Part shown: in pieces, positions 9,912-52,603 of the stretch
How the letters are laid out: every line of letters begins with the position of its first letter
Position numbering within the stretch: position 1 is the first letter of the stretch
NCBI GenBank assembly: GCA_041287365.1
Contig: JBEULL010000030.1
Span: 11,782 to 75,781, forward strand
From: Dissulfuribacterales bacterium
Lineage (GTDB): Bacteria; Desulfobacterota; Dissulfuribacteria; Dissulfuribacterales; DYLC01
Direction: 5' to 3'
DNA length: 64,000 nucleotides
The notes under the pieces: model-generated
What the model was told of the DNA's origin: nothing
Database searches by the model: none
Seen by the model: only the letters and a program-made list of their open reading frames with translations
Translations under genes and position numbers: made by a program

Positions 9912-10036
9912 TGATGAAATCGTGAAAAAGTAATGTCGAATGTTTAATGCTGAATGTTGCATTAATGTAATAGTCAATTATATGAAGTGAATTAAACCAT
10001 AATTAAGCATTAAGCATTACAACTTAAACATTTTTA
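9912..10036 (+). repeat. Intergenic TIR/heptamer element copy A (internally deleted, right end decayed)
   Basis: Left end TGATGAAATCGTGAAAAAGT, then AATGTCG AATGTTT AATGCTG AATGTTG, a spacer ending GTGAATTAAACCAT, and an inverse arm AATTAAGCATTAAGCATTACAACTTAAACATT. Confidence 0.75.
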
Positions 10037-10055
10037 TATGATAGTGAGGAACGTT

Positions 10056-11231
10056 ATGAAGAAAAAACTGTTTTTTTACTACCTCTGCACATGCCTTGTG
10101 TTCGGAATGACGGCCTGTGTCTCCAAAAAGGATGAAGCACCCAAAAAGATTTCATCCACTGTAAAGGCGGATGTCATGGAGATAACACCCAAAACCGCCG
10201 CGTCCGAAGCGGTTTTCACCGGTCGAGTGCAGGCAAAAAGGCAGGTAATTCTGGCATCGAAGATATCGGGTTATATCAAAAATATGACCGTAAACGCAGG
10301 GGATGCCGTGTCCGGCGGCAGTCTTCTGGTGCAGATGGATGATGCAGAGGTCATGTCCAAACTGAATGCCCTTAACGCTGAAAAAGATGCCCTTAAAAGG
10401 CAGAAAATGGCCATGGAAGCCGATCTGGTCTATGTAAAAGCCAATTTCAAGCGAATCGAACGCCTGAAAAATGAAAACGCCGCCACGGAAGACGAATTTG
10501 AACGGGCGCAGAGCGCTCTAAACGCAGCGGAAGAACGCCTGAACGCCATGAATGCAAACATCAGGGCTGTGGATGCCCGTATTCAAGAAGTGCACAACCT
10601 TCTCCAATACACAGACATCGTTTCTCCTTTAAGCGGTTGGGTAGTGGAAAAGCTCATGGATACAGGTAGTTATGTCAATGCAGGCACGCCTATCTTGAAA
10701 ATTGATTCAAAGAACGATGGATTCTGGTTCGAGGCGAATGTGGATCAGGCATTCCTGCACCGACTGACCCTAGGTCAGAAGGTCTGGATATCCATTCCAG
10801 CCCTCGGCTCTGATGCCCCGCTTACGGCCACCATAAGCGAGATAGTGCCGCAGGTAAATACCGCCACCAACACATTCACCGTAAAAGCGGATCTTAACCT
10901 CAAGGGCCTGAGAAGCGGCATGTTCGGTAGAATAGCCATACCAACAGGCACAAGACAGATTATCGCTGTGCCGCAAAAGGCATTGATTCATCGCGGTGGA
11001 ATCACAGGTGTCTACACCATCGGCAGGGACCGCATAGCCCATTGGCGTGTGGTGAAGCTGGGCAGCAAATGGTCGGAGGTCAATGCCTCACAGGCTTCAG
11101 CCAAGGGTGGTCAAACAGGACATGAAACAATAGAAGAATCGTGGGTGGAGGTCCTTGGAGGACTGGACTCAAAGGAAACCATAGCGATCTCCAACCTCGA
11201 ACAGGTCCGGGAGGGCATAAGGATTGAATAA
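10056..11231 (+). CDS. RND efflux periplasmic adaptor subunit (lipoprotein)
   Basis: Lipobox MTAC, SKISGYI..V.AGD.V, coiled hairpin, SPLSGWV, LRSGMFGR. ATG 10056 with GAGGA SD. Confidence 0.93.
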   Translation: MKKKLFFYYLCTCLVFGMTACVSKKDEAPKKISSTVKADVMEITPKTAASEAVFTGRVQAKRQVILASKISGYIKNMTVNAGDAVSGGSLLVQMDDAEVMSKLNALNAEKDALKRQKMAMEADLVYVKANFKRIERLKNENAATEDEFERAQSALNAAEERLNAMNANIRAVDARIQEVHNLLQYTDIVSPLSGWVVEKLMDTGSYVNAGTPILKIDSKNDGFWFEANVDQAFLHRLTLGQKVWISIPALGSDAPLTATISEIVPQVNTATNTFTVKADLNLKGLRSGMFGRIAIPTGTRQIIAVPQKALIHRGGITGVYTIGRDRIAHWRVVKLGSKWSEVNASQASAKGGQTGHETIEESWVEVLGGLDSKETIAISNLEQVREGIRIE

Positions 11232-14200
11232 CCACAGTTTTTTGCAAAAAATTACTGGTTTTTTCGTTGACTCCAAGCTCACTCCCCTGGCCATAGGTGC
11301 CAGCTTATTGCTGGGACTCTTCGCCGTTTTCTTTACGCCGAGTGAAGAAGAACCACAGATCGTGGTGCCCATGATAGATGTCCTGGTTTCCATGCCAGGG
11401 GCCTCGCCCAAGGAGATGGAAAATCGTGTCATCGGCCCTATGGAAAAACTTATCTGGGAGATTCCTGGCGTGGAGTATGTCTATTCCACGGCTGAAAACG
11501 GCAAGGCCATAACCATTGTGCGTTTTTATGTGGGAGAGGACACCGAAAAGAGCGCTGTGCGGCTGTATGACAAACTCTATTCTCACTTCGACTGGATACC
11601 GCCCGGATGCTCAAAACCGCTTTTGAAGATGCATTCCATCGACGATGTGCCCATACTCGCCATGACCTTCTGGTCAGACAGGCATGACTCCATGACCCTG
11701 CGACAGATCATCACTCAGTTGAATGACGAGATACGTAGCATTCCAGGTATCAGCGATACCAAAGTCATAGGAGGACTGAAAAGAGAGGTCCGCATTCTTC
11801 CCAAAGAAGACGCCCTTTATTCCATGGGTCTGGACTTTCAGGCGGTCATGGCCGCCCTCTCCTCACAGAACCAGGCCTCATGGGTTACAGAACTTACTGA
11901 AAACAATCAAAATATCTCCATTCGGCTCAACAATTTCTTTCGCACTGTTCAGGATGTGGCAGACACCGTAGTATATGTGCACAACGGCAAACCCGTATTT
12001 CTTAAGGAAATCGCGGAACTTGTAGACGGTCCTGAGGAGCCTGTCTCCTATGTGATGATAGGCGGTGGAAAGGCCGCTGCGCAAAAGGGCGTCCAGGTGC
12101 CCCAATCCGGCCTGAAAAACGCCGTTACACTACAAGTAGCCAAGAAAAAGGGCGAAAACGCTACTGATCTGGCAAAAAAGGTTCTTGAAAAAACGGAAGC
12201 GCTGCGCGGGCATCTGCTGCCATACGATGTACACATGGTGGTCACGCGGGACTACGGCGAAACCGCCAAGATGAAGTCTGATGAGCTTCTGGAACACCTC
12301 GCCCTTGCCACCTTGTCCGTGGCCATTTTGATGGCCCTGCTCTTGGGTTTCAGGGCCAGTCTGGTGGTGTTGGTGGCCATTCCAGTCACTCTGGCCCTGA
12401 CCCTCTTCATCTACTATCTCTATGGCTATACCTTGAACAGGGTAACGCTCTTCGCCCTCATATTCTGCATCGGCATTCTGGTGGATGACCCCATAGTAGG
12501 CGTAGAAAACATCATGCGACACCTGCGGCTGCCGGAAAACAAGGGGTTACCCGTTCGTGACATCATCACAAAAGCAGTTGTGGAGGTGGGAAGCCCTCTG
12601 ATTCTGGCCACGTTTACGGTCATAGCCGCCATTCTGCCGCTGGCCTTCGTGCGTGGGCTCATGGGGCCATATATGCGCCCCATGCCTGTAGGTGCATCCG
12701 TGGCCATGTTTTTGTCCATGGTGATCTCCTTCGTGATCACACCCTGGGCTGCATACCACATACTGAAAGGCGTCCCTGAGCACGAAACCGAGCAGGAAGG
12801 CCTGCTCACTCGCATATACCGCTGGATCATGGGGCACCTCATTAAAAACCCCATGTGGCGATGGAGTTTTCTCGGCATCATGGCCTGCTGTTTTTTGTTG
12901 GCCTGTTCACTCATTTATACAAAGGTGGTCAAGGTCAAGATGCTGCCGTTTGACAACAAGAGCGAGTTTCAGGTGGTCATCGACATGCCCAACGGCACAT
13001 CTCTGGAAAAGACCGCGGCTGTAGCGGAGGAACTGGCCAGATACCTAATGGAACAGCCTGTCGTGACCGATTGCGTGATATATGCCGGCACCGCATCGCC
13101 GTTCAATTTCAACGGGTTAGTGCGCCATTATTACATGCGAAGCGGCCCCACTGTAGCGGACATTCAGGTAAACCTGCTGCCCAAAAGGCTGCGCGACGAG
13201 CAGAGCCACTCCCTCACCAAACGCCTGCGGCCTGAGCTGACGGCCATAGCTCAAAGGCATGGTGCGCGCATAAAGGTGACGGAGATACCGCCAGGGCCGC
13301 CAGTGCTTCAGACCCTGGTGGCCGAGATCTATGGGCCTGATTACGAAAAACAGATAGAGATCGCTCGACGTGTCAAGAAGATATTTCAGGAAACGGAAGG
13401 CGTTGTGGATGTGGACTGGTACATGACGGATTCGCAAAAGGAGTTGGTGCTTACCGTAGAACGGGACAAGGCCGTGACAATGGGCATAACACCTGAACAC
13501 CTGCTCGGGGTGGTACAAACCGGCCTGAACGGCAGCAGTGTGGGGCTTCTGCACGACACCGGCAGCAAAGAAGATGTGCCCATTGTGATAAAACTACCAT
13601 TGGCGGACAGAAATCTGGTTAGCAACCTGCAAAACATTCAGGTAGCTGGCGCCAGAGGCATGGTCAGACTTTCAGAACTGGTAAAAGTGGAAGAAAAAAC
13701 CCTTGAACACCCCATCTACCACAAAAACCTTCAGCCCGTGGTGTATGTAACAAGTGATGTCTCTGGCGAGGAAGAAAGCCCTGTTTACGCCATTTTGAAG
13801 CTGAACAAAAAGCTGGAGAACCTACCTGTAAACCACTCAGATAATGGCGAACGCCTGAACATCTTTTATACCACGCAACCCTTCTCCACAAAAGACTGGA
13901 GTATGAAGTGGGATGGAGAATGGCATATAACCTACGAAGTCTTCAGAGACATGGGTGGTGCCTTTGCCGTGGTGGTGGTGATCATCTTCATTTTGGTAGT
14001 GGGCTGGTTCAGGTCATATACCGTGCCGTTGGTCATTCTCTCGCCAATTCCCCTATCCTTGATCGGGATTATACCTGCCCATGCCTTGATGGGTGCGTTT
14101 TTCACTGCAACTTCTATGATAGGCTTCATCGCTGGCGCTGGAATAGTAGTCAGAAACTCCATCATTCTGGTGGACTTCATAGAGCTGCGTCTGAAAGAAG

Positions 14201-14439
14201 GACTTTCCATCGAGGAGGCAGTGATAGATGCCGGAGCCGTACGGTTCAGGCCCATGCTGCTTACGGCATCAGCGGTGGTGGTGGGTTCATTTGTGATACT
14301 CTTCGACCCCATATTCCAGGGACTGGCCATCGCCTTGATGTCTGGTGAGATAGCGGCGACTCTCTTTTCAAGACTGGTGGTTCCTGTGTTATATTATCTT
14401 GACTATCGCATGACCACTGAAAAACGGTTGATTCTATAA
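11224..14439 (+). CDS. RND efflux permease (AcrB/CzcA family)
   Basis: 1071 aa; [37 protein letters not shown]. Confidence 0.96.
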
Positions 14440-14459
14440 AAAACAAGGGATGACGACAC

Positions 14460-15443
14460 ATGGAACCTGACATGAGCCCCAAACAGAGAACAGCCCTGTT
14501 ACTGTTGGGCCTTCTGGCTACACTCACCATTCTTGCCCAGATATTCACCATTCTGACCACAGGCAAGTCATTCTGCCCCAGCGATGGGTGTGAGGTGGTC
14601 CACGACCTCACACGTGTCTCGCAGATATATATCAATCTGGCTGGAATCATCTATTTCCAACTGCTTTTCTGGCTGACGGTGGGCAGCAGACAGGGGCATA
14701 CGCACAGACATTATCTCTTCGATCCCTACAACCGTTCCAAAACGGCCTCTTGCTCCCTATTGCAATTCATGCTGCTCATGGGCATGGTAGCCGAGGGCAT
14801 TCTGTTGGGCTTTCAGATGTTCGTGGTCAAGACCGTCTGTCTGTATTGCTTCATCATTTTCGGCTTCATCGTACTCATGAATGCAGCTCTGGGAATCAGA
14901 CAACTCATACAGGCATGTATCATCCTGGGCGCCCAGCTTGCAGTCTTTGCGTCCCTGAACTTCAACACCTCCTCCACATTGAATCTGAATGAACTGTCGC
15001 TGGACAAGGGCACCTATGCAGTCAAGAACTGTGAAAAACCCAAACACCGCATGTATCTCGTATTTTCAGAGAATTGCCCTCACTGCCAGGCGGTTTTGAA
15101 GGAATTGTCAAACTGCTCTCTGTGTGAGTTTCATTTCAACCCTGTCACAAGGCTGACAAATGCCCAAGAGATGTTCAAAGACCTGACTGCCATTCCGGAC
15201 TACAATCCCGACGTCAACAAGGCCATGCTCAAAATGCTGGGCATCTATACTATACCAATTTTGATCTCCGAGACATCCAGCGGCCTGGAACTGGTAAAGG
15301 GGCAGGAAAACATTGTAAATTATGTGCGCGACCACTGCATTTTATCTGAGACGCCAAAGGGTATAGACTCCCTGTTATCCAATCCGCTTCTGCCTTCTGA
15401 CAGCCAAGAAGGGGCATGTCAAGTGGAAAAGGAATGCAAATGA
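14460..15443 (+). CDS. VKOR-like membrane domain fused to a thioredoxin-fold domain
   Basis: CPSDGC loop, CLYC in a TM segment, FSENCPHC in the C-terminal domain, cis-Pro-like TIP. Confidence 0.75.
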   Translation: MEPDMSPKQRTALLLLGLLATLTILAQIFTILTTGKSFCPSDGCEVVHDLTRVSQIYINLAGIIYFQLLFWLTVGSRQGHTHRHYLFDPYNRSKTASCSLLQFMLLMGMVAEGILLGFQMFVVKTVCLYCFIIFGFIVLMNAALGIRQLIQACIILGAQLAVFASLNFNTSSTLNLNELSLDKGTYAVKNCEKPKHRMYLVFSENCPHCQAVLKELSNCSLCEFHFNPVTRLTNAQEMFKDLTAIPDYNPDVNKAMLKMLGIYTIPILISETSSGLELVKGQENIVNYVRDHCILSETPKGIDSLLSNPLLPSDSQEGACQVEKECK

Positions 15444-16306
15444 AGGTCATTTGTTCCATACAAGAGATACGCGATGAGTGTATGCAGTATAAAAAGGCAG
15501 GGCTTACCATTGGTTTTGTGCCCACCATGGGATATTTTCATGCAGGCCATACAGCCTTGATGAAGCGGGCGAGGCAACTCACAGATCGCGTGGTGGTAAG
15601 CCTTTTCGTAAACCCAACGCAGTTCAGCCCCAACGAAGACCTCTCCCGCTACCCCCGCAACATAGAAAGGGATACAAAAATAGCCGAAGAAGCCAATGTG
15701 GATATACTTTTCACTCCTGATGCAAAAGAACTGTATCCAAAGGATTTCAGCACCTGGGTTCATGTGGAAGGCATTTCCGAGCATCTGTGCGGCAAAAGCA
15801 GACCAGGTCACTTTCGAGGAGTGGCCACCATCGTAGCCAAACTCTTCGGTATCGTGCAACCTGACAAGGCGGTGTTCGGACAGAAGGACTTTCAGCAACT
15901 CGCAATCATCAGGCGTATGGTGCGTGATTTGAACATGCCTGTGGAGATCGTCAGCCATGAAACAGTGAGAGAACCTGACGGCCTGGCCATGAGCTCCCGA
16001 AATATATATCTCTCTCAGGAAGAGCGCTCATTAGCGACCTGCCTTTATCATGCCCTGTGCATTACAGGAAATGCGTTAAAAAGGCAAGAGACAACCCTGT
16101 CATCCCTGCAAACAGCCATTGTCAGTGCTATATCGGTCAGCCCCCTTGTAAGGATCGACTATATATTCATAGGCGATCCGCACTCACTTCAACCATACGA
16201 TGAAGACGGATTTCAAAAGGCGAAAGAGGTGCTGGCAGCCCTGGCCGTTTGGGTGGGCAAGACCAGACTCATCGACAACCTGTGTTTCACCAAAGAGCCG
16301 CAATAA
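15434..16306 (+). CDS. panC: Pantoate--beta-alanine ligase
   Basis: GFVPTMGYFHAGH, FVNPTQF, RPGHFRGV, FGQKDFQQ, GLAMSSRN, TRLIDN. Confidence 0.98.
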   Translation: MQMKVICSIQEIRDECMQYKKAGLTIGFVPTMGYFHAGHTALMKRARQLTDRVVVSLFVNPTQFSPNEDLSRYPRNIERDTKIAEEANVDILFTPDAKELYPKDFSTWVHVEGISEHLCGKSRPGHFRGVATIVAKLFGIVQPDKAVFGQKDFQQLAIIRRMVRDLNMPVEIVSHETVREPDGLAMSSRNIYLSQEERSLATCLYHALCITGNALKRQETTLSSLQTAIVSAISVSPLVRIDYIFIGDPHSLQPYDEDGFQKAKEVLAALAVWVGKTRLIDNLCFTKEPQ

Positions 16307-16345
16307 CCTAACGAAATATTTACATCACATCAAAAAGAGGACATC

Positions 16346-16732
16346 ATGCTTCGTTCCATGCTCAAATCCAAGATACACAGGGCCACGGTTACACAGACCG
16401 CCCTGCACTATGAAGGCAGCCTATCCCTTGACAAGGACCTGATAGAAGCGGCCCAGCTACTTCCCTTCGAGCAGATCATGGTCTATAACATCTCAAACGG
16501 CGAACGCTTCGACACCTATGTGATAGAGGCGGAAAGGGGTTCCGGTACGGTATGCCTGAACGGCGCAGCTGCCAGAAAAGGTGAACCCGGAGACCTCATC
16601 ATCATTGCATCCTACGGCCTTTTCGACAAACAGGAGTGCCTCACGGGGGAAAGCCGCATAGTAGCTGTGGACAGCAATAACCGAATAACTGACGTCATGA
16701 CACACAACTGGTCGCATTGGAGTGCCAAATGA
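16346..16732 (+). CDS. panD: Aspartate 1-decarboxylase
   Basis: MLKSKIHRATVT, YEGS autocleavage site, NGERFDTY, LNGAAAR. Confidence 0.97.
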   Translation: MLRSMLKSKIHRATVTQTALHYEGSLSLDKDLIEAAQLLPFEQIMVYNISNGERFDTYVIEAERGSGTVCLNGAAARKGEPGDLIIIASYGLFDKQECLTGESRIVAVDSNNRITDVMTHNWSHWSAK

Positions 16733-18168
16733 ACAAGACCTATTCAAAAAGCGAGATAAAGCAGCTCAAAAAACGACTTCTTTCCGAAAGACAAAATATC
16801 TGGTCTCAACTCACGGATGACGAACGCAAAAAGGCCATGGATTATGCCGTTGACTACATCCATTTCCTGAGCGAGGTCAAGACAGAACGGGAAGCCGTGA
16901 AATTTATGGCAAAAACAGCTCAGGAGGCCGGTTTTGAGCCGATTACCAAGACTAAAGGGGCAAACAAACTCTTCTGGCAAATAAATGGAAAGGCGGCGGC
17001 CCTCGTTCACTTGGGCAAACAGGACATACTGGACGGCATTCACCTCATCGCATCCCACATCGACGCACCCAGACTGGACCTGAAACAGAATCCCCTTTAT
17101 GAGGAACTGGATATGGCCTATCTGAAAACCCACTACTATGGCGGGATAAAGAAATTCCAGTGGCTTGCCAGGCCGCTGGCCATACACGGCGTTGTCCTGA
17201 CGCAGACCGGCAAAACCATCGAGCTCGTGCTTGGAGAACATACCTCCGATCCCGTCTTCACCATCAACGACCTGCTTCCACACCTAGCCGGCAAGGTGCA
17301 GGCCGACAAGAAACTTTCCGAGGCCATACCAGGCGAAAAACTTAATGTACTTTTCGGCGGCCTGCCGATTTTGGGGCCGGAAGATATGAAAGAAACGGTA
17401 AAGCTGAACATCCTCAGAATGCTGCACGAGCAATACGGCATCACGGAAGAGGATTTCATCAGTGCGGAGATCGAGATTACGCCGGCAGGCCCTGCCAGGG
17501 ACGTGGGGCTGGATCGGGCATTTGTGGGCGGATATGGTCAGGATGACCGCATATGTGCATACACCTCCATGAAGGCCATTCTGAATACGCAAAGGCCTGC
17601 CCACACCTGCATCGCCCTTTTCATGGACAAGGAAGAGATCGGAAGCGACGGCAATACCGGCGCCAAATCCCGCATCCTCGAACTGCTGGTTCACGACCTT
17701 CTGAATTACATAGGCAAAAAGACAAACCCTGACACCCTGTTACAGATATTCCGCAATTCCAGGGCCATCAGCGCCGATGTAACCGCCGGCATCGATCCGG
17801 ATTATCAGGAGGTACACGAAAAGCGCAACGACGCCCTTATGGGATACGGCATCTGTCTCACGAAATACACCGGTTCACGCGGCAAATACGGCGCCAACGA
17901 CGCCCACGCCGAGTACGTAAACTGGATTCGACGCACATGGAACCAGGCTAAAATCATCTGGCAGACAGGCGAGTTAGGTCGTGTGGACGAAGGCGGAGGA
18001 GGAACCGTGGCCAAATACCTCGCCTATCACGGCATGAGCGTGGTGGATGCAGGACCGCCTCTTTTGAGCATGCACTCTCCCTTTGAAATAGCACACAAGG
18101 CAGATATTCTGATGACACACAAGGCATACGAAGCCTTTTATGCAAGCTCAATAAAAACGGCCTCATAA
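16729..18168 (+). CDS. M18-family aminopeptidase
   Basis: SHIDAPRLDLK, THYYGGIKK, YGQDDR, DKEEIGS, SMHSPFE. Confidence 0.93.
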   Translation: MNKTYSKSEIKQLKKRLLSERQNIWSQLTDDERKKAMDYAVDYIHFLSEVKTEREAVKFMAKTAQEAGFEPITKTKGANKLFWQINGKAAALVHLGKQDILDGIHLIASHIDAPRLDLKQNPLYEELDMAYLKTHYYGGIKKFQWLARPLAIHGVVLTQTGKTIELVLGEHTSDPVFTINDLLPHLAGKVQADKKLSEAIPGEKLNVLFGGLPILGPEDMKETVKLNILRMLHEQYGITEEDFISAEIEITPAGPARDVGLDRAFVGGYGQDDRICAYTSMKAILNTQRPAHTCIALFMDKEEIGSDGNTGAKSRILELLVHDLLNYIGKKTNPDTLLQIFRNSRAISADVTAGIDPDYQEVHEKRNDALMGYGICLTKYTGSRGKYGANDAHAEYVNWIRRTWNQAKIIWQTGELGRVDEGGGGTVAKYLAYHGMSVVDAGPPLLSMHSPFEIAHKADILMTHKAYEAFYASSIKTAS

Positions 18169-18342
18169 AAAATCATTATCGGTGAATGGCTATGACAAAA
18201 AGCGCCGAATGCAAGACGAGCAAATCAATGTTGAATGTTAAATGCTGAATGTTGAATTAAGGTAGATTTACCACAATTAAACACTAAAAATTCAACATTA
18301 AACATTTATAATTGCAGTCGGTGAATTTTTGTGGTTCCATCA
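18155..18342 (+). repeat. Intergenic TIR/heptamer element copy B
   Basis: Ends AAACGGCCTCATAAAAAATC ... GAATTTTTGTGGTTCCATCA (12/20 inverted); four AATGYTR heptamers at 18227-18254, inverse arm 18275-18306; TCAATAAAA repeated at 18148 and 18340. Confidence 0.9.
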
Positions 18343-18360
18343 ATAAAAGGGGTAACGAAC

Positions 18361-20980: not shown

Positions 20981-21014
20981 AAACTATTCCAACCTGTCAT
21001 TGTAACTCATTGAA

Positions 21015-22210: not shown

Positions 22211-22216
22211 GACACC

Positions 22217-39518: not shown

Positions 39519-39548
39519 AAAAAAAGGCAAGGTGTTAGCCTGCCTTTT
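39519..39548 (-). terminator. Rho-independent terminator of the purH-like operon
   Basis: Minus strand AAAAGGCAGG-CTAACA-CCTTGCC-TTTTTTT. Confidence 0.8.
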
Positions 39549-39605
39549 CATTCTCCATCTATTTCCTTTGAAATTTTAAGCGATAACGAAGCGGTGCACA
39601 GCCAA

Positions 39606-40901: not shown

Positions 40902-40912
40902 GATTCGCCCTC

Positions 40913-41653: not shown

Positions 41654-41676
41654 AAATCGCTCCTTATTTTTAATTT

Positions 41677-43392: not shown

Positions 43393-43524
43393 GTAACCTC
43401 CTTATCTACTAAAAAATTAAAAATATACTCAAAGAAACCTCGAAAAATTAAAGATTCCCTAAAAATACCCCTGTTCCACGGTCATCGCCACAGGTAATTG
43501 CAAAAAACTAACAGATCTCATCAG

Positions 43525-43695
43525 TGACGGTTTAGTAAAAAGTCATTTTGGTAAATGGCTAAGCAAAAAACGCCCAATACAAGGCGCGCAAATCCTACTT
43601 GTTAATGTTGAATTGAGATGAATTTAACCACAATTTAACATTCAACATTCAACATTGTTAACTACAGCAGTTGGCGAATTTTTACGACACCGTCA
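43525..43695 (+). repeat. Intergenic TIR/heptamer element copy C
   Basis: TGACGGTTTAGTAAAAAGTC ... GAATTTTTACGACACCGTCA (17/20 inverted); TAACATT CAACATT CAACATT arm; terminal TCA is the mfd stop. Confidence 0.93.
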
Positions 43696-46600
43696 CAAGT
43701 TCTTTATCATCTGCACTGTATCCAATACCGCATTCAAACCCTTACCCTGCAAAGGGACCATCAGACGACCGTCCGGCAGCAGACGCCAGGTCTTGTGCTT
43801 GGGCAGGGCCGATAGCACGCCATTTAGATTTACAGGCCCCTCCGGACCATATGTGAGGACAAGCATATCCTGCTCCTTCACTCTGCTTTTGTCCAGACGG
43901 CTACAGTTCATTGCAACCAAGACCCGCTTTATTGCCATAAGCTGTAAGAGTGTGGTAACCTCTTGAGGATATTCACCGAAACGATCCGTCAATTCCCGCT
44001 CGAACTCGGCAGCCTCATCCTCGCTCTCTATACGGCTGAGTCTGCGGTACAGTCTGAGCCTTTCTTCGATATCTGGGCAATATTCCTCAGGGATGAAGGC
44101 AGAGACCCCGAGGTTGACCTCGGGATCGAACACCCGCTTGATAGGCTGCCCTTTGATCTCCTGCACCGCCTCTTCCAGAATATTCAAGTAAAGCTCATAA
44201 CCCACCTCGGCTATCTGACCCGATTGCGACATGCCTATGATATTACCGGCCCCCCGCATCTGCAGGTCTTCCATGGCCAAAGCGAAACCGCCGCCAGAAG
44301 AGATGGAATCCATCACCGCCTTGATGCGCTTCAACGCCCCTTTTTCTGTGTGTGCACCGGGCGGCACAAAAAAATAGGCATAGGCCTGCTCGGTGGAACG
44401 GCCCACTCGGCCTCTAAGCTGATAGAGCTCGGCAACACCAAACAGATCGGCCCTGTCTATAAGGATGGTGTTGGCCGCAGGTATATCGATACCCGATTCG
44501 ATGATGGCGGTGCAGACCAGACAATCGATTTCACCACGCACGAACCTAATCATTACATCCTCCAACTGGGACGCATCCATTTGACCATGGGCCACCTCCA
44601 CTCTTATACCAGGCACAAGGGTTCTTACATGCTCCGCCAACCGCTCGATACCCTGTATGCGGTTTCGCACAAAAAATATCTGGCCGTTTCGTTCCAGTTC
44701 CCTTTTAATGGCCTGAGAGATGATGGTATCGTCAAACTCTGCCACAAAGGTCTTGATGGGCAGACGGTCCTGAGGCGGCGTTTTTATTATGGACATATCC
44801 CGTAAACCCAGCAAGGAAAGCTGTAATGTGCGTGGAATGGGTGTAGCGGTCAGGGTCAGACAATCTATGTGCTGTTTGAGCCCTTTTAGTTTTTCCTTGT
44901 GTTTTACGCCGAAACGGTGCTCCTCATCCACAACCAACAGGCCAAGCGACCTAAACTGCACATCCTTCTGAAGGAGTCTGTGAGTCCCTATGACTATATC
45001 AATCTGGCCGCTTGCCAGACCTGTCAAGGTCTCTTTTATCTGCCTTGGAGACTTTAATCGGTTAAGCGCCGCTATCCGCACGGGAAATTTCTCGAATCTT
45101 GCCTTGAAACTGCGTTCGTGCTGTTCCGCCAACAAAGTGGTGGGCACGAGCACGGCCACCTGTTTGCCATCGGAAACGGCCTTGAAGGCAGCCCGCATCA
45201 CCACCTCGGTCTTGCCGTAACCCACATCCCCACAGATCAATCGATCCATGGGCACCGGACTCTGCATGTCTTTGAGCACATCCTCGATGGCGCTGGCCTG
45301 ATCCGGAGTCTCATCATAGGGGAAGGCCGCCTCGAACTGCCTGTACATGGCGTCCGGCTCCGAAAATACGATACCCTCCTGCACTTGCCTCCTTGCATAG
45401 AGCTCCACCAGTTCATGGGCTACCTCATAGACAGCCTTTCGCACCTTCTTTTGTTTGAGCTGCCAGGCCGAACCTCCCAGTTTATCCAGAGCTGGTTCTC
45501 GGCCATCGATGCCCACATACCTCTGAACAAGTCCCAGACGGTCCACGGGCAGGTACAGCCTGTCACCGTCTCTGTATTCGATATAAAGGAACTCGCCCTG
45601 CACACCTTGCAGGTCCATACGCACCAATCCCTTGTAACGACCCACACCATAATCCCTGTGCACTATCAGACTTTCGTGAGTGATATCCAGGGATACGACA
45701 TCGGCCAATTTGGTCCTTTTATCAGCTTTTCGTGTAGCCTTCTTGCCTTTTGCAAAGGGCCTACCTCCAAAGAGCTCATCCTCGGAGATGACGATCAATT
45801 CAGCAGCCGGCGAATAAAATCTTTTGGAAGGACTGCCCACAAAAAGAGATATGGCGCCGGCAGGAGGTGCATAGTCCAAGATTTCGTTTTCAGCGCGCAG
45901 GGAAATCCGTGATGTCTTTGGTTCCTGCTCCGCGTAATAACCAAGAAGCGACAACAACCTGTCCCTGTGCAGAATGGAGCGTGCAAAAACCGCCACACGT
46001 TTTCCCTCACGGGCCCATTCAGCCAGAGTATGCCATACAGGCCGCAGGAGTTCTTCTCCCACATGATGAAACACGGGCACAGGCAGGGACGGAGTAACCA
46101 CCAGCGATTCAATGGCATGAACCCGAGATGTCGAGTGGCACTGCAAGACCTGCTCCCCTTGGGCGATTTTTGCCTCACCTTGCCTCTCGATTCCAATCGC
46201 TGAAAAACTTAACGTTGCGCAGGCATGCACTCGATTGAAAACCACGTCAGGCGGCAAAACCAGGGCAGACAATTCGGACAGGACGTGAAAGGATGCACGG
46301 GCGGATTCATAGGCATGCCTTGCAGTCTCCCAAAAGGCATACAAGCCATTGTACACCTCTTCATATCCATCCATGACAAATAGAGTATGCTCAGGCAAAT
46401 AATCCAAAACAGTGCTGTTGCCGTCATAAAAAATTGGCAGTAAAGATTGAGCCCCTTCCCAGAACCGCCGTGACTCCAAAAGCTCCATCCACTCGGTCAA
46501 CTGACGGGCAGGCCAATCCATGAGGCGGGCCTGCTGAATCATGGCATCCTGAACCTTTTTTATCAAATCATCCTCGAATAACAGCTCCGAACAAGGTAAC

Positions 46601-47274
46601 ACAGTGAACTCTGTAAGGGGATCACTGGACTTCTGAGTTAAGGGGTCGAAATAATGCATCTCCTCCACAAAATCCCCAAAGAAATCCAGACGTACAGGAA
46701 ATAGGCTGTTACAGGGATAAACATCGAGGATTCCGCCACGCAAACTGAATTGTCCGACAGACTGGACTATCGGTACGTTTTCATAACCCACCTTCAGCAG
46801 CCAGGACACCAGAGCATCCCGATCCGTTTCCTCACCGGTCTGAATATATTCCACATTCCTGCTCAGAACAGTCCTGGGCACAGTGGGCTCACATAAGGCC
46901 TGAACAGGAACAACGAGCAGAAAAGGCTCACGGCTTACAGCCAGTTGATACAATACCGAGATGCGCTGAATGACAGTCTCAACGGCCGGAACAATGGGAA
47001 CAAAAGGCAGATTTTCATGAGAAGGAAACAACAAGACAGGATAATCCGTAAAACATGCGAGGTCGGCACACACCCTTTCAGCATCTTTCAAACCATTCGT
47101 CAACCATACCAGGGGTCGATGTATCTTCTGAAAGATATGGGCCGCGCACCAGGCTGCAGCGGCCTTTTCCATGCCTGTTACAGAGACCTTGACATCTCCG
47201 TGACCCTGCAATAAATCCACTAAGGAATCAAACACACAATCCGCCTTTGTATGAATAAACAACAAGGCAGACAC
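43693..47274 (-). CDS. mfd: Transcription-repair coupling factor
   Basis: UvrB-like N-terminus, VHRDYGVG, CGDVGYGKTEV, DEEHRFG, TATPIPRT, QLRGRVGRS, TRCF domain. Confidence 0.97.
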   Translation of the reverse strand: MSALLFIHTKADCVFDSLVDLLQGHGDVKVSVTGMEKAAAAWCAAHIFQKIHRPLVWLTNGLKDAERVCADLACFTDYPVLLFPSHENLPFVPIVPAVETVIQRISVLYQLAVSREPFLLVVPVQALCEPTVPRTVLSRNVEYIQTGEETDRDALVSWLLKVGYENVPIVQSVGQFSLRGGILDVYPCNSLFPVRLDFFGDFVEEMHYFDPLTQKSSDPLTEFTVLPCSELLFEDDLIKKVQDAMIQQARLMDWPARQLTEWMELLESRRFWEGAQSLLPIFYDGNSTVLDYLPEHTLFVMDGYEEVYNGLYAFWETARHAYESARASFHVLSELSALVLPPDVVFNRVHACATLSFSAIGIERQGEAKIAQGEQVLQCHSTSRVHAIESLVVTPSLPVPVFHHVGEELLRPVWHTLAEWAREGKRVAVFARSILHRDRLLSLLGYYAEQEPKTSRISLRAENEILDYAPPAGAISLFVGSPSKRFYSPAAELIVISEDELFGGRPFAKGKKATRKADKRTKLADVVSLDITHESLIVHRDYGVGRYKGLVRMDLQGVQGEFLYIEYRDGDRLYLPVDRLGLVQRYVGIDGREPALDKLGGSAWQLKQKKVRKAVYEVAHELVELYARRQVQEGIVFSEPDAMYRQFEAAFPYDETPDQASAIEDVLKDMQSPVPMDRLICGDVGYGKTEVVMRAAFKAVSDGKQVAVLVPTTLLAEQHERSFKARFEKFPVRIAALNRLKSPRQIKETLTGLASGQIDIVIGTHRLLQKDVQFRSLGLLVVDEEHRFGVKHKEKLKGLKQHIDCLTLTATPIPRTLQLSLLGLRDMSIIKTPPQDRLPIKTFVAEFDDTIISQAIKRELERNGQIFFVRNRIQGIERLAEHVRTLVPGIRVEVAHGQMDASQLEDVMIRFVRGEIDCLVCTAIIESGIDIPAANTILIDRADLFGVAELYQLRGRVGRSTEQAYAYFFVPPGAHTEKGALKRIKAVMDSISSGGGFALAMEDLQMRGAGNIIGMSQSGQIAEVGYELYLNILEEAVQEIKGQPIKRVFDPEVNLGVSAFIPEEYCPDIEERLRLYRRLSRIESEDEAAEFERELTDRFGEYPQEVTTLLQLMAIKRVLVAMNCSRLDKSRVKEQDMLVLTYGPEGPVNLNGVLSALPKHKTWRLLPDGRLMVPLQGKGLNAVLDTVQMIKNL

Positions 47275-47321
47275 ACGGGTCTGCCTTGCAACAAAAATTT
47301 TTTACAGGTTACCACCAATTT

Positions 47322-47501
47322 TGATTGTCTCGTAAAAAGTCATTTTGGATGGATGGCTAAACAAAAAGCGCCAAATGCAAGGCACGCACATTAATGTAAC
47401 ATATTAAATGTTGGACTAAGGTTAATTTATCACAATCAAACATTAAAAATTTAACATTAATCATTTGCAATTGCAGTCATCGAATTTTTGCAACGCCATC
47501 A
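47322..47501 (+). repeat. Intergenic TIR/heptamer element copy D
   Basis: TGATTGTCTCGTAAAAAGTC ... GAATTTTTGCAACGCCATCA (14/20 inverted); shared ATGGCT..CAAAAAGCGCCAAATGCAAGGC segment; degenerate heptamer arms. Confidence 0.9.
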
Positions 47502-47504
47502 GTT

Positions 47505-48155
47505 CTATGGCCTTAAAAAGGCTGACCAGGCACCGGATTCATTCTGCAGCTCTATCCAACCGCCCTTGCCCAACATGCCTGGATTTATAATGACGGTTCT
47601 GCCGATTCTGTCCAATGACCTGGCCTCATGAATGTGACCGGTCAGACAGAAATCGGGCTGAATACGCTCTATGAACTCGCGGACCGCCTTGCTGCCCACA
47701 TGCATACCATTTGAGATTCTATCCGCGGCAGTATCGTAAGGTGGGGCATGGGACACCATGATCTTGATGCGGGCATGACTTACTGTTGCATGACCCTGTT
47801 CCAATAATAGGCCAATTTCATCCTCCGAGAATTCCGTAGGTGTGTTGAAAGGTGTGGGATTGGAACCGCCTACTCCAAACACCCCCACATCTTCAAATAA
47901 AAAACCCCTGCCATGCAGATTGATGCCCAATTCATTCAAATAGGTCATGACAGAGACATCATCCAGATTGCCCGGCTGGGCATATATGTTGGGATTTATA
48001 TCGCGAATAGCAGAGATTACTTGATGAGCTGCTTCATGATTTCCAAAATTGGTCAAATCTCCTGTCACGATTACCATATCAGCACCTGCAAGGCCGGAAA
48101 CGGCCTGCAATGCACCATATTCCATGTGAATGTCACCAAACGCTATGATTTTCAT
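47505..48155 (-). CDS. Calcineurin-like metallophosphoesterase
   Basis: GDIH, TGDLT, PGNLD, SHAPP, TGHIHE, NPG; GGAGG SD before MKIIAF. Confidence 0.92.
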   Translation of the reverse strand: MKIIAFGDIHMEYGALQAVSGLAGADMVIVTGDLTNFGNHEAAHQVISAIRDINPNIYAQPGNLDDVSVMTYLNELGINLHGRGFLFEDVGVFGVGGSNPTPFNTPTEFSEDEIGLLLEQGHATVSHARIKIMVSHAPPYDTAADRISNGMHVGSKAVREFIERIQPDFCLTGHIHEARSLDRIGRTVIINPGMLGKGGWIELQNESGAWSAFLRP

Positions 48156-48187
48156 ACTACCACCTCCTGTTTTCCAATACCCGCGGC

Positions 48188-48580
48188 TCATGATGCCCTG
48201 TCCAACTGAATGATCAACGGAATGACATTTACCTTGGGTGCATATGGTGTGGTCCGGCCCAATGACCACTCCACTACACGATAGCCGTTTCCCAGCCGCT
48301 GCCCTATTTTCTCAACCGTTCCCTTGATATCTATGACGGGATGACGCTCCATAACCTGCGGCAGTCCATAAGTCAGACTGCATGCCATGCACTTGCCCGG
48401 CCGCTCCGTCAGCCGGTACTCCAGTACCAGTCTGCTTTTTTCCGCTTCAAACGAAACAAACGCCAAGGCAATATCGAACGCCCCCTCCTCGGCACCGCCA
48501 TAAAGGGCATCGAAGAACTGGTCGTCCCTGCCCCTTGGAAAAAGTTCCTGCAAAAAACCCTCTGTAAAAAGCTCTTTCAT
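48188..48580 (-). CDS. Conserved hypothetical protein with CxxC
   Basis: 130 aa; FFDALYG.AEEGAFDI and RPGKCMACSLTYGLPQV..RHP motifs recalled from deltaproteobacterial hypotheticals. Confidence 0.8.
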   Translation of the reverse strand: MKELFTEGFLQELFPRGRDDQFFDALYGGAEEGAFDIALAFVSFEAEKSRLVLEYRLTERPGKCMACSLTYGLPQVMERHPVIDIKGTVEKIGQRLGNGYRVVEWSLGRTTPYAPKVNVIPLIIQLDRAS

Positions 48581-48783
48581 GACTTATCCTCTCGATGGCA
48601 TTTTTTATGCTTTGACAAAATAGAATATCCGTGTTTTTAATCGAAAAAACAGGAACTGGTCAACCCCCAAAGAAATAAAGGCGAAACTCTCGAAAAAATA
48701 ACCCCATATTCCACATGACAACCGCCCATAACATACAAAAATGTCGAGCAGGAAAGAAAAATGTCGGGACCAGGCAAACTGCT

Positions 48784-49170
48784 ATGAAATTCATCTTTGT
48801 GACCGTGCTGGCGGCCGGATTCCTATTGTCTCACACATTCGGTTCCTTTGCAGAGGAACAGCCAGCAGGGCAAAAAGACTCAGGTCCAGCACAGCTTCTG
48901 CCGGTGAACACCCTGACAAAACCTGCTGAAAAGACGCAGGAACCGGACAATGTACAGATGCCTGACAAAGACCCTGAAGATACCTCATGGCAGAGCATAA
49001 AAATAAACAAATCAGCAAGTGATGCACCCGCAGCAAACAACAGTTGCCCCTGTGACAGCACTGGAGTGCGTTCACGGCTGATTCGCATGGGAGATATGTC
49101 AGAAAACAGCGGCCCAGGCTATGGCGGCAGGGGAATGAGGGGTGGAGGCATGGGCAGAGGGAGACGCTGA
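48784..49170 (+). CDS. Secreted low-complexity protein with Gly/Arg-rich tail
   Basis: Signal peptide MKFIFV..SFA; CPC; GPGYGGRGMRGGGMGRGRR; TTGACA-N18-TTTAAT upstream at 48612-48641. Confidence 0.6.
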   Translation: MKFIFVTVLAAGFLLSHTFGSFAEEQPAGQKDSGPAQLLPVNTLTKPAEKTQEPDNVQMPDKDPEDTSWQSIKINKSASDAPAANNSCPCDSTGVRSRLIRMGDMSENSGPGYGGRGMRGGGMGRGRR

Positions 49171-49182
49171 CCTTCCCTTATG

Positions 49183-49809
49183 TCATCCCCACAATCTTGC
49201 AGTTAGGTTGGCCACATACTCCCCTTGAAAACGTGCACCTGCCAGTTCGTTTTCACTGGGCATACGCCTGCCGTCCTCGCCTGCTATGGTGGAAGCCCCG
49301 TAAGGTGAGCAGCCCGTCACCTCTTTCGAGGTCATCTGCGCCGAAAAGGTATATGGAAGCCCCGCGATTATCATACCGTGGTGCAACAGAGTGATATGAA
49401 AACTCAGAATAGTGGACTCCTGACCACCGTGCTGAGTGTTGGAACTGGTGATCACGCTGCCCACCTTGCCCACCAATGCACCTTTTTGCCAGATGTTACC
49501 GGTGGAGTCCAAAAACTGACGCATCTGACCGCACATATTGCCAAAACGCGTAGGGGTTCCGAAGATGACGGCGTGGGCATCACTCAATTCATTTAAACTG
49601 CAAACAGGTATCACCTCCTGTTCTTTTTGGGGCTGGACTGCACCCATCTTTTCAATGACCTCGCCTGGCAAGGTTTCCGGCACCCTGCGCATAACCGCCT
49701 CCACACCGGTAACCCGTTGAACCCCCTCCGCCGCTGCCTGTATCATACGATACACATGACCATACAGAGAATAATAGACCAGCAAGACCTTCACTGATGA
49801 AACACCCAT
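49183..49809 (-). CDS. wrbA: NAD(P)H:quinone oxidoreductase WrbA
   Basis: YYSLYGH, GTPTRFGNM, QHGGQEST, SPYGAST. Confidence 0.95.
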   Translation of the reverse strand: MGVSSVKVLLVYYSLYGHVYRMIQAAAEGVQRVTGVEAVMRRVPETLPGEVIEKMGAVQPQKEQEVIPVCSLNELSDAHAVIFGTPTRFGNMCGQMRQFLDSTGNIWQKGALVGKVGSVITSSNTQHGGQESTILSFHITLLHHGMIIAGLPYTFSAQMTSKEVTGCSPYGASTIAGEDGRRMPSENELAGARFQGEYVANLTARLWG

Positions 49810-49820
49810 GAGCTGCCTCC

Positions 49821-51113
49821 TTACAATCGCCAATACCGGCAATCTGAAAACTCCTGTCTTTGAAACAAGCCCTTGACATCCACCACAACACCGCCGTTTT
49901 TACCCTGATTCTTCAACATATTTCTGATGAAACCCGAGCCGGCCTGCTTGAAAACACCGTGGGCCACGGCGATAATCACTCCATCCTGTTCCACGGGCGG
50001 CTCATGCAATAACTCTATGGAATACTCACGTTTTGCATCCTCCCTGTCCGCAACCGGATCAAAAACCACTGGTTGCATGCCATATTCCCGCAATTCATTC
50101 AGGATGTCCACCACCCTTGTATTGCGTATATCAGGGCAATTCTCCTTAAAAGACAGGCCCAGAACAGCCACCCTGGCACCGTCCACACGTACTCCAGCGC
50201 GAATCAACTCCTTTACGGCACACTGAGCCACATAAGTACCCATGGAATCGTTTATACGCCTACCTGCCAAAATCACCTCCGGATGATAACCAAGCTTTTG
50301 TGCACAGTGAGTAAGATAATAGGGATCCACGCCGATACAGTGCCCTCCCACCAATCCAGGCTTAAACGGAAGAAAATTCCATTTGGTTGAAGCTGCCTTT
50401 AATACCTCTTGAGTGTCCAGGCCCAGCCTGTGAAAGATGAGGGCCAACTCGTTCATAAAGGCTATATTCAGGTCCCGCTGCGCATTCTCGATAACCTTGG
50501 CCGCTTCAGCGGTCTTGATTCCTAAAACAGGATAAACACCTGCTGTCGCCACGAGCGAATAAATACGCTTCAACCGCTCCAGTATCTTCTCATCCTGAGC
50601 AGCCACAATCTTTACGATAGTTTGCAGAGTGTGTTCCATATCGCCTGGATTGATGCGTTCGGGCGAATAGCCCAGATAGAAATCCTTACCGCAACGCAGG
50701 CATGAAACCTCTTCCAGAACAGCAGCGCAGACGTCCTCCGTGACACCCGGATATACAGTGGACTCATACACCACCACAGCGCCCTTCTGAAGATGATGGC
50801 CGATGAGACGTGAAGCTGAAATCAGATGTGAGAGGTCAGGCTGCTTGCTGGCGTCGATGGGAGTCGGCACAGCCACGATAATCACACTGGCCCTGCGCAA
50901 TTGGGCCGCATCGGTGGTAAATGTAAGATGCCCTGCACTAGCAAAATCCTGTTGCGATACCTGACCGGTGGTATCCTGACATGCCTTGTAACGGCGAATC
51001 TTTTCTTCGGACAGGTCAAAACCTATAGTCTCGATCTTTTTGCCGAAAGAAACAGCAAGAGGGAGACCGACATATCCTAAACCAACTACGGCGACTGTCT
51101 CATGAACATTCAT
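49821..51113 (-). CDS. Nucleotide-sugar (UDP-HexNAc) dehydrogenase, WbpO/TviB family
   Basis: GLGYVGLPLA, YESTVYPG, YSPERINPGD, GGHCIGVDP, FKENCPDIRN. Confidence 0.95.
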   Translation of the reverse strand: MNVHETVAVVGLGYVGLPLAVSFGKKIETIGFDLSEEKIRRYKACQDTTGQVSQQDFASAGHLTFTTDAAQLRRASVIIVAVPTPIDASKQPDLSHLISASRLIGHHLQKGAVVVYESTVYPGVTEDVCAAVLEEVSCLRCGKDFYLGYSPERINPGDMEHTLQTIVKIVAAQDEKILERLKRIYSLVATAGVYPVLGIKTAEAAKVIENAQRDLNIAFMNELALIFHRLGLDTQEVLKAASTKWNFLPFKPGLVGGHCIGVDPYYLTHCAQKLGYHPEVILAGRRINDSMGTYVAQCAVKELIRAGVRVDGARVAVLGLSFKENCPDIRNTRVVDILNELREYGMQPVVFDPVADREDAKREYSIELLHEPPVEQDGVIIAVAHGVFKQAGSGFIRNMLKNQGKNGGVVVDVKGLFQRQEFSDCRYWRL

Positions 51114-51128
51114 TTACAACTCACCTCT

Positions 51129-51313
51129 TGCTGATTTCATAAAAAATCATTACCAGGAATGGCTGAACGAAAACTGCCAAATGCAAGGTGCTCAAATCAA
51201 TGTTAAATATTGAATGGTTAATGTTGAATTAAGGCTAATTTAACCACAATTTAACATTCACCATTAAAAATTAAACATTATTGTGCAGTCGGCGAGTCTT
51301 TGCGATATCATCA
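51129..51313 (+). repeat. Intergenic TIR/heptamer element copy E
   Basis: TGCTGATTTCATAAAAAATC ... GAGTCTTTGCGATATCATCA (14/20 inverted); AATGTTA AATATTG AATGGTT AATGTTG arm and TAACATT CACCATT AAAAATT AAACATT arm; terminal TCA is the FmdB-gene stop. Confidence 0.92.
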
Positions 51314-51574
51314 ACCCTTGCTATGCCCTGGTAGCTCTATGGTGGAACAACTGCCCGAGCCGCAGGAGTGGTGCTGGACTGTAGGCATACCGGAGGGACT
51401 GGTGACACGACCCGGAGCACCATCCGCTACAGCCATATTGGAAGCGCTCATAAGTTTTTGCACCTCAGGGCTCTGGCATCGAGTGCATTTGATATTTGCA
51501 ATTTCGTCTTTCTGCATCACCAATACCTCAAAAACATGATCACAACTGCTACAACGGAATTCATGTATAGGCAT
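51311..51574 (-). CDS. FmdB-family zinc-ribbon protein
   Basis: MPIHEFRCSSC.HVFE...CTRCQS..V.KLMS; AGGAGG SD. Confidence 0.9.
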   Translation of the reverse strand: MPIHEFRCSSCDHVFEVLVMQKDEIANIKCTRCQSPEVQKLMSASNMAVADGAPGRVTSPSGMPTVQHHSCGSGSCSTIELPGHSKG

Positions 51575-51583
51575 AATACCTCC

Positions 51584-52450
51584 TTATTGCTCTATCGCCG
51601 CGGCCTTGGGAATCTCCTTTTTCAGCCTGTTTTTTTTGTAACATACAAACACCAGATTCTCCACACCAAAGGCGATGGATGCCACGAGAATAATCGTAGC
51701 ACCAGTAGATATATTATAAAGATATGATAACCAGATACCACATATAGTAAAGACCAGGCTGAAAATACTTGAAAGCAACATCATACTCCAGATGGAACGG
51801 CAGTACTTCTCGGCCATGTGTGGTGGAATGGAAAAAAGAGCTATCACCAGAAGGAGCCCCACTGCACGCATGGTAATCACCACTGCACAGGTCATAAGCC
51901 CCACCAGCAAAAAATGCAAAAAAGTAACCGGCACCCCCTTAAGCAAGGCCATTTCTCTGTCATAGGAGAGCAACACAAATTGATTCCTGAACAAAAACAA
52001 GGCCAGCAGAATCAAGACATTCATGCCAGCCATCAGCCACAGCTCAGAGGTGGGAACCGCCACCATGCTGCCGAAGAGATAGGTCATGAGATCCACATTA
52101 TAGCCAGGGGTCAGATCCAATAATATGATACCTATAGCCATGCCGCCTGACCAGATGGCTCCGATGATGGCATCCGCCCTGTCCTGTTTTTTAAGAGTGA
52201 AAAACGCCATCAAAAAGGCCATGAAAAGCGAAAAACACAGAATGACTGGAAACGGTGACAATGCCAGAAAAAAGGCCAGCCCGACCCCTCCATAGGCCGC
52301 ATGGGCTATGCCTCCGGTGAACATCACCATTCTGTTCACAACGGCAAGGCTGCCCATGGAACCACAGGCCACACTGCACAAGATGCCGGCCAGTGCGGCG
52401 TTACGCATAAAATCAGGCAGTTCACGAAAAAATGCGGTTATATCAAGCAT
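51584..52450 (-). CDS. znuB: Zn/Mn ABC transporter permease
   Basis: GIAHAAYGG, DLMTYLFGS, VGLLLVIALF.IP; start ATG at 52450. Confidence 0.92.
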   Translation of the reverse strand: MLDITAFFRELPDFMRNAALAGILCSVACGSMGSLAVVNRMVMFTGGIAHAAYGGVGLAFFLALSPFPVILCFSLFMAFLMAFFTLKKQDRADAIIGAIWSGGMAIGIILLDLTPGYNVDLMTYLFGSMVAVPTSELWLMAGMNVLILLALFLFRNQFVLLSYDREMALLKGVPVTFLHFLLVGLMTCAVVITMRAVGLLLVIALFSIPPHMAEKYCRSIWSMMLLSSIFSLVFTICGIWLSYLYNISTGATIILVASIAFGVENLVFVCYKKNRLKKEIPKAAAIEQ

Positions 52451-52603
52451 GATGCCCTCACAAAAAGTCATTGTCGTGAATGGCTACGGCAAAAAACGCC
52501 AAATGCAAGGCGTGCAAATCCCGAGAAACGAGGTGTACTCAAGGTACGCAGTTACGAGGGATGCAGCACAACACAGCAGCGGCGGGTTTTTGCGATGCCA
52601 TCA
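52450..52603 (+). mobile_element. MITE-like element copy F (GC-rich core, no heptamers) with flanking direct repeat
   Basis: TGATGCCCTCACAAAAAGTC ... GGGTTTTTGCGATGCCATCA (15/20 inverted); same left 70 bp as B-E; ATCAAGCATGAT at 52442-52453 and 52600-52611. Confidence 0.85.

Follow-up and report, generated by a model that had tools for sequence, protein, structure and literature searches.

Miniature transposable elements with inverted repeats (MITEs) and arrays of short palindromic repeats have both been described from Geobacter genomes. Chunjie, a MITE of Geobacter uraniireducens Rf4 (Chen et al. 2008), is summarised as A+T-rich and 178-235 bp long, with 21-bp ends and 9-bp direct repeats, and is listed as a MITE of the phylum Desulfobacterota (PMC3184786, PMC10969869). 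For Geobacter metallireducens, the account of Aklujkar et al. 2009 (PMC2700814) reports palindromic arrays, shown as hairpins, in which four or five heptanucleotide repeats stand in tandem, as well as palindrome-centred 'short RNA elements' between operon genes. Mosaic non-autonomous transposons built on Tn3-type ends have been named TIMEs (PMC4133298). Here we analyse six intergenic elements, A to F, in a 64,000-nt stretch of the genome of a Dissulfuribacterales bacterium (GenBank assembly GCA_041287365.1, here G000; contig JBEULL010000030.1, positions 11,782 to 75,781 of the forward strand, G000:C24:11782-75781; hereafter the window). Elements B-F are probably copies of a non-autonomous DNA transposon, a MITE, that is widespread in Desulfobulbales and Desulfuromonadales, and in whose core a second repeat has become nested, the composite then being mobilised through the unchanged ends.

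Going by the cited passages, the elements resemble Chunjie in being small, non-coding and multicopy, in having inverted ends and a stable hairpin, in belonging to the same phylum and in being able to lie inside an operon without disrupting it. They differ in their 4-5 bp duplications, their TGATGG ends and their GC-rich standard core, a distinction drawn from the description of Chunjie and not from its end sequence. A Chunjie-type 9-bp repeat was not seen, as an 8-bp in-register repeat was present in 0 of 18 copies. The heptamer arrays of G. metallireducens have the same architecture as the AT-rich core found here, but the heptamers given there are MTYCTGA and GGACCGG, compared to AATGTTG here, and the cited part of that account describes neither ends nor duplications nor mobility. 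The Geobacter palindrome family with the motif GRCGTAGCGCTGCTACGCC was considered as the identity of our elements and rejected: only 1 of 80 motif loci gave a weak partial profile match (E 7e-4), and none of seven inspected loci had TGATG..CATCA ends. Correia, RUP, ERIC and Nezha elements (PMC3184786) are similar, as summarised there: they are of like size, lie between genes, have inverted ends and target duplications, fold into hairpins and are missing from orthologous sites in relatives. The elements here differ from them in end sequence, in a duplicated left end, in an A-N4/5-T target beside TGA stops, in occurring in two classes of one phylum and in having several interiors per pair of ends. 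With TIMEs, as outlined in the source cited above, they share the principle of a single pair of transposase-recognised ends around unrelated or nested inner modules, although the transposon family is another one and the element here is known from sequence alone.

The six elements, described in the terms of this probable assignment, are as follows.

Element A, 9912..10036, + strand: left-end remnant (9912-9931) that passes directly into a heptamer palindrome with a long loop; a right end is lacking; located upstream of an HlyD-type gene.
Element B, 18155..18342, + strand: full composite MITE; AT heptamer core at ~18227-18312; duplication ATAA at 18151-18154 and 18343-18346.
Element C, 43525..43695, + strand: composite MITE of junction class 2 (the CCT of the GC core is retained); follows immediately on the mfd stop codon, the terminal TGA of the element being that stop.
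Element D, 47322..47501, + strand: composite MITE with AT core; between mfd and a metallophosphoesterase gene.
Element E, 51129..51313, + strand: composite MITE with AT core; between an 87-aa open reading frame (ORF) and a UDP-glucose dehydrogenase gene, the ORF stop being the terminal TGA of the element.
Element F, 52450..52603, + strand: standard MITE with a GC-rich hairpin core at ~52521-52573; in the ATGnnTGA overlap of znuC-like and znuB-like genes; duplication AGCA at 52446-52449 and 52604-52607.

A preliminary description of the window had reported these six as related elements, and all of them do align with one another. A profile built from B-F recovered its own five copies at E 1e-54 to 9e-37, plus more copies genome-wide. 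The blocks that B-F have in common comprise ~72 nt on the left and ~31 nt on the right, and the scaffold halts at GCAAATC and restarts at GCAG, exactly as had been proposed. The proposed division of the cores, with an AT-rich heptamer core in A-E and an unrelated one in F, held for B-E, in which inverted heptamers form an AT-rich array with a core G+C of 0.20-0.26, and for F, with its 53-nt core of G+C 0.53. The heptamer palindrome of A is a long-loop variant, and beside this AT-rich core A retains only the left ~20 nt of the scaffold (TGATGAAATCGTGAAAAAGT), with no recognisable right end. The outermost five bases of the left end of B are degenerate (AAACG where TGATG is expected).

G000 is a 2.1-Mb assembly in 34 contigs, 97.8% complete and with ~49% G+C. 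Searching it with separate left- and right-end profiles (cut-off E ≤ 0.01) gave 28 left ends and 30 right ends, which formed 21 pairs. By core type, ten pairs had an AT core, nine a GC core, one a hybrid and one a shortened core; a tenth GC-core copy has a degenerate right end and fell below the profile cut-off. Since nine paired copies have the F-type core, this core is the common or standard one and not an oddity. The paired copies are non-coding and short, at 154-205 bp and in B-F at ~155-190 bp, and their ends are terminal inverted repeats (TGATGG..TCGYAAAAA / TTTTTGCGACGCCATCA). Behind the outer left end, TGATGG.CTCGTAAAAAGTC, the end motif recurs as a second, direct copy, GATGGCTAAGCAAAAA.CGCC, while the right end, GGCGA.TTTTTGCGACGCCATCA, lies 3' of the hairpin interior. 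Pairing of the right half with the interior and the inner left motif gives a rod-like hairpin and makes the element a single long, imperfect palindrome with an extra outer left end; the terminal helix is 96% paired in 28 sequences.

The elements are flanked by short direct duplications. A first pass found a perfect 4-bp duplication directly outside TGATG...CATCA in 9 of 18 full copies, compared to 2 of 306 mismatched left/right end pairs used as control. A larger set of 57 elements, with the ends fixed by full-length profile match, was drawn from G000, from three further genomes of the order and from named metagenome-assembled genomes (MAGs). Here a perfect duplication was present in 36 of 57 (4 bp in 28, 5 bp in 8), compared to 56 of 3192 mismatched pairs. 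Next to the duplication, 35 of these 36 had A as the outer base on the left and 33 had T on the right, so the target reads A-N4/5-T. Insertion would have occurred by a cut-and-paste or copy-in reaction of the DDE type, duplicating 4 or 5 bp at A-N4/5-T, very often directly 5' of a TGA stop. For comparison, Tn3 elements duplicate 5 bp.

Comparison with two genomes of the same genus (G001 and G002; ~85% DNA identity to the window, 79-80% identity in Mfd) identified orthologous sites that lack the elements. C, E and F were absent from both genomes (loci L011 and L012), with an exact empty site for F in each. D was empty in L011, and L012 has a different repeat of ~270 bp there. B had a precise empty site in G002, with a single ATAA target, and the spacer of A was ~112 bp shorter in G002. 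In three other studies, contigs with ~94% identity to the window contained C to F at unchanged positions. The presence of C-F in this strain and their absence from the same-genus genomes place the insertions before the divergence of the strains and after the split of the species. G001 has a palindromic repeat family of its own (GATTTCTCGCTTYGCTCGAAATGACA / GTCATTCCGAGCGAAGCGAGGAATC), which occupies the spacers of A (L132), B (L133) and D (L012:5723-6001); in another MAG (L193), one element with TGATGG ends has the same motif as its interior.

How widespread is the GC-core element? BLAST found it in four families of the order (G000, G003, G005 and G008), with isolated partial matches in four further genomes and none in G001 or G002. 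The end motif, with at most one mismatch, occurred 74 times in G003, 69 times in G005 and 28 times in G008, compared to 0 for a reversed-pattern control. The G008 copies, aligned and judged by eye, look nearly identical. An exact right-end search over one genome per species returned at least 127 stretches. The 80 loci among the matches listed were nearly all labelled Desulfobulbales or Desulfuromonadales/Geobacteraceae; 65 of these 80 matched the MITE profile, 45 of them over nearly the full length. Among the right-end matches were Pelovirga terrestris M08fum and MAGs labelled Desulfocapsa sulfexigens and Desulfobulbus propionicus. Subfamilies that retain the ends and the GATGGCTAAGCAAAAA motif differ in their interiors, which are also palindromic, and some copies have a wholly unrelated inner sequence or are merely two abutted ends. 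The early idea of a chassis with a swappable cassette is apt on this wider scale too, as in other Desulfobacterota several interiors that are unrelated to one another lie behind the same ~20-bp ends. F's GC-rich core would be the ancestral interior, although the direction of replacement is itself inferred. A small element with the ends GTAACTATCCAG was also seen nested in TGATGG-ended elements or forming their interior (L105:37-360 in G003; L216 in another MAG).

The AT core is an inverted array of AATGTTG-like heptamers around the central motif GAATTAAGGT..ACCACAATT. This palindrome occurs at 29 loci in G000, 11 with both MITE ends, 2 with one end and 16 solo. It was also present in all nine genomes of genus g3 and in G012, with single matches in G008 and G018, and gave no match in G001, G002, G003 or G005. 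The g3 genomes have no MITE except for isolated partial matches, one each in three of the nine. There the palindrome lies in another scaffold, between ATTCCGCTGAAAAAACCC.. and ..GGGCTTTTTGAGCGGAAT (L127-L131), which looks like a second, different inverted-repeat carrier of the same heptamer core. Three solo loci were compared with the same-genus genomes: in one case the palindrome stands in place of ordinary GC-rich terminator-like hairpins, in a second it flanks such a hairpin, and in the third it is an insert of ~85 bp where two genes overlap. The GC-core element and the heptamer palindrome are independent modules with separate distributions. Among known systems, cyanobacteria have small dispersed repeats nested in MITEs, and heptamer repeats.

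The junctions indicate how the two modules came together. Eight composites at different loci have the same junctions, AAAT(C/T)|AAT.TT and T.TAAT..|GCAG, and a second pair of junctions is common to C and the copy at C11:68037. Perfect duplications flank four of the eight (three scored, the fourth, C10:307756, by eye). As the shared junctions occur at different loci, several with duplications of their own, the composite itself has transposed via its unchanged ends. In a hybrid copy (C27:94350) the palindrome replaces the left part of the GC core and the right part is retained; the same right-hand remnant occurs in two further fragments. In this lineage, a single heptamer palindrome would have taken over the centre of a MITE copy, by insertion into the hairpin tip with loss of the old core or by recombination, and the composite would then have been mobilised. 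The independent distribution of the palindrome, the shared junctions and the duplications thus support the second option of the preliminary description, in which the core of the first element gave way to a second micro-element and amplification of the composite followed.

Other insertions were found in or near the palindromes. A third repeat, with the ends GGGAAGTCCCAAAA and 24 exact matches in G000, lies in the loop of a heptamer palindrome and also splits another MITE copy (C10:307756-307959, C29:223951-224298, C21:12002-12121). The centre of a G012 heptamer palindrome contains an IS200-like element of 625 bp with a 156-aa Y1 transposase (L426:1395-2019, G012:C107), of which a second copy, 96% identical, has no heptamers. 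Palindrome centres seem to attract insertions generally. A RAYT/REPIN system was considered for the heptamer palindrome and was not supported, as among six Y1_Tnp loci in heptamer-rich genomes only one gene lay between heptamer arms, and this gene is part of the IS200-like element.

Of 22 elements examined for context, 16 lie between co-directional genes, 6 between convergent genes and none between divergent genes. Orientation is antisense in 13 of the 16 co-directional cases, with the right end facing the upstream gene (two-sided binomial p ~0.02). The stop codon of the upstream ORF is the terminal TGA of the element in 7 of these 13 and is 0-4 nt away in 3 more. That insertion took place just 5' of the original TGA can be read from the exact empty sites of F, C and E, and at F, in the ATGnnTGA overlap of the ABC ATPase and permease genes, both reading frames survive. 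Because the terminal TGA of the element replaces the original stop, operons stay intact. The left end, read in gene sense, carries GAGA or GAGG a few bases 5' of several downstream start codons, a motif that is ribosome-binding-like by sequence only.

The GC-rich core is predicted to fold as a long hairpin. For F the minimum free energy is -49.8 kcal/mol on the + strand, where z = -1.9; the other strand has -44 kcal/mol and z = -0.7. In a set of 28 copies with the GC core, drawn from G000, G005, G008 and named MAGs, 82% of the cells in the hairpin were paired, compared to 29-54% when the partners were slid, the 82% being somewhat inflated because the structure was taken from a single member, F. 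The covariation score of these copies was 0.156 compared to 0.118, and 0 of 500 shuffles scored as high. At stem columns 74-76 and 127-129 both sides had changed in up to nine sequences, and the adjacent internal-loop bases were conserved. RNAalifold gave no result on a gappy MAFFT alignment but gave one on a cleaner alignment.

Could the heptamer core have arisen in place, an AT-rich seed in the centre of the MITE having expanded by replication slippage to a palindromic array? The arrays do change length in this way. Sludge metagenome contigs of the ~94% identical strain have 14 nt more (AATGTTGAATTTTG) in C at window position 43603 and 7 nt more (TAAATGC) in D at 47404, so that heptamer arrays are still changing length by whole units, and the number of heptamers differs among copies, as slippage would have it. 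An origin in place is nonetheless improbable, as the same central motif stands at the 16 solo loci without MITE ends, palindromes are abundant in genomes free of the MITE, and at one orthologous spacer the palindrome stands in place of a terminator hairpin. Dedicated exchange, for example site-specific recombination at the GCAAATC and GCAG junctions with integron-like swapping of cores, would account for the left junction that is identical in the main class and the hybrid, and for the many unrelated interiors behind the same ends across the phylum. However, neither a recombinase nor a conserved recombination site turned up, the right junctions vary from class to class, and varied interiors are also expected if related transposons each left deletion derivatives of their own. 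Nested inserts moreover occur elsewhere than at these junctions, such as the GGGAAGTCCC element in the heptamer loop, the degenerate IS481-like insertion in the left arm and the IS200-like element in the palindrome centre. As palindromes nest in each other's centres, 'exchangeable cores' can be explained without special machinery, and we regard dedicated exchange as the least probable of the alternatives.

A third alternative gives the GC-core element a mainly functional role as a structured module of RNA or DNA, for example a mobile terminator, an element that stabilises RNA or a hairpin to which protein binds; selection would maintain it and mobility would be secondary. Such a role would fit the compensatory stem changes and conserved internal-loop bases across two classes, the many G-U pairs on one strand only, and the antisense bias (13/16, with 0/22 in divergent spacers), including the seven of 13 antisense cases in which the element supplies the upstream stop. 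Set against this are composites that still transposed without a GC core, the lack of any Rfam match, sites that are not conserved between species of one genus, and the derivation of the tested structure from one member, which inflates pairing. We therefore consider a mainly functional module improbable too, to much the same degree as slippage in place. A more ambitious proposal combines mobility and function. The ends TGATGG..CCATCA would be a delivery chassis used throughout the Desulfobacterota, inserting precisely at TGA stops, restoring the stop, offering a GAG(A/G) ribosome-binding-like motif and carrying interchangeable hairpin payloads, one of them conserved by compensatory change across two classes. 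Such a mobile, operon-compatible RNA or DNA structural element would depend on a mobiliser not encoded in most carriers, maybe a new or host-encoded enzyme. This proposal is unlikely, if less so than the three alternatives above. That B-F are copies of a MITE with a second repeat nested in the core of the composites remains the reading we prefer.

Several observations weigh against this preferred reading. A perfect duplication is missing in 21 of the 57 elements. The flanking A and T could belong to the target, giving a duplication of 6-7 bp and ends GATG..CATC, and copy B, by eye, favours such a reading. The copies in G000 have diverged by ~0.2 substitutions per site. No empty allele was found among the strains: none of the ~94% identical contigs joins across an empty site, and the joints seen connect different copies. 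The family may be long inactive in G000. A tree of the 102-column scaffold is a star in which AT- and GC-core copies are not separated (6 changes compared to 6.1 in shuffles), and a single clade is neither supported nor rejected (p-AU 0.30). The tree being uninformative, a single origin of the composites depends on the junctions, and these fall into at least two classes (C and C11:68037 differ from the rest). No autonomous element with these ends was found among rve, ISNCY, DDE_Tnp_1 and Transposase_mut matches in G000, G003, G005 and G008, or among rve and ISNCY matches in G020, a search that left out other transposase families and ISfinder. The ends were also missing from 20 IS256-type loci in 69 genomes of the order and from four relatives of an IS256-type remnant of G005 (see below) in 401 genomes of the phylum. 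With no autonomous partner found, the label MITE is based on the ends, the duplications and the empty sites.

What, then, mobilises the family? The window was said to contain no transposase, and this is so: all 56 non-overlapping ORFs of at least 110 aa are housekeeping or Pfam-less, none has a transposase domain in Pfam, and there is no rve match on the contig. A transposase ORF bounded by the same ends, which the preliminary description had suggested looking for, was not found in the carrier genomes either. Several candidate partners were rejected. The IS3-like elements of G000 (contigs C8 and C28) have unrelated ends; both contigs are short, have a higher G+C (0.55-0.56) and carry IS3-like orfA/orfB remnants. 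Pairs of ends 1.5-1.9 kb apart in G003 enclose ordinary genes, and a further pair on C33 of that genome, with 5.2 kb between the ends, lay outside the gene-content check. Two G003 contig starts proved to be the MITE with another nested repeat. A G008 copy with an rve fragment is a MITE into which a degenerate IS481-like element has inserted, and unrelated ends were also seen on the other insertion sequence (IS) copies of G008 and on its IS256-like element. No MITE-type ends accompany the ISNCY fragments found in G005 and G003.

One lead is unconfirmed. In G005:C1 (L394:1303-1605), the remnant of an IS256-type (Transposase_mut) gene has its stop codon 35 nt inside a right-type MITE end. Elements of the IS256 family make duplications of 8-9 bp, which are a misfit with the 4-5 bp seen here. 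The TG...CA ends, the 4-5 bp duplications and the repeated end motifs presumably fit IS3- or IS21-type elements best. The mobiliser might accordingly be an rve-type transposase of the IS3 or IS21 kind that acted in trans and is now absent from G000, an assignment that we hold tentatively and consider more doubtful than not.

The MITE family is apparently undescribed, and the kind of genome parasite is an ordinary one. The statement in the preliminary description that no account of such a composite was known is so far uncontradicted: there was no Rfam match and the end sequences were not found in literature text, with the alignments of multicopy sequences in the PDF supplements of PMC2700814, PMC2996986 and PMC3543383 as a place where the family may be listed for Geobacter or Pelobacter. 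Rfam gave 0 matches in the window, and in five loci with GC-type copies it gave only sub-threshold chance matches and a tRNA. The points of note, of moderate weight, are the target adjacent to stop codons, the conserved structured core and the missing mobiliser.

In these small (~2 Mb) genomes the family takes up a noticeable part of the intergenic spacers. It also fragments assemblies, as contigs end inside copies in G003 and among contigs from sequencing runs. Its landing at stop codons and gene overlaps without disruption of the frame illustrates a way for selfish DNA to last in a genome with little free space. The end profile would be useful for annotating MAGs of Desulfobulbales, Desulfuromonadales and Geobacteraceae, for avoiding false calls of small RNAs or terminators, and for deriving presence/absence markers for close species. 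The significance would be greater if the conserved core were a functional RNA, or if the mobiliser were unusual. Within the window, the five complete copies (18155-52603) lie in one orientation within 35 kb. They account for 5 of the 21 paired copies of G000 and 4 of its 10 AT-core composites, a clustering that would fit local hopping.

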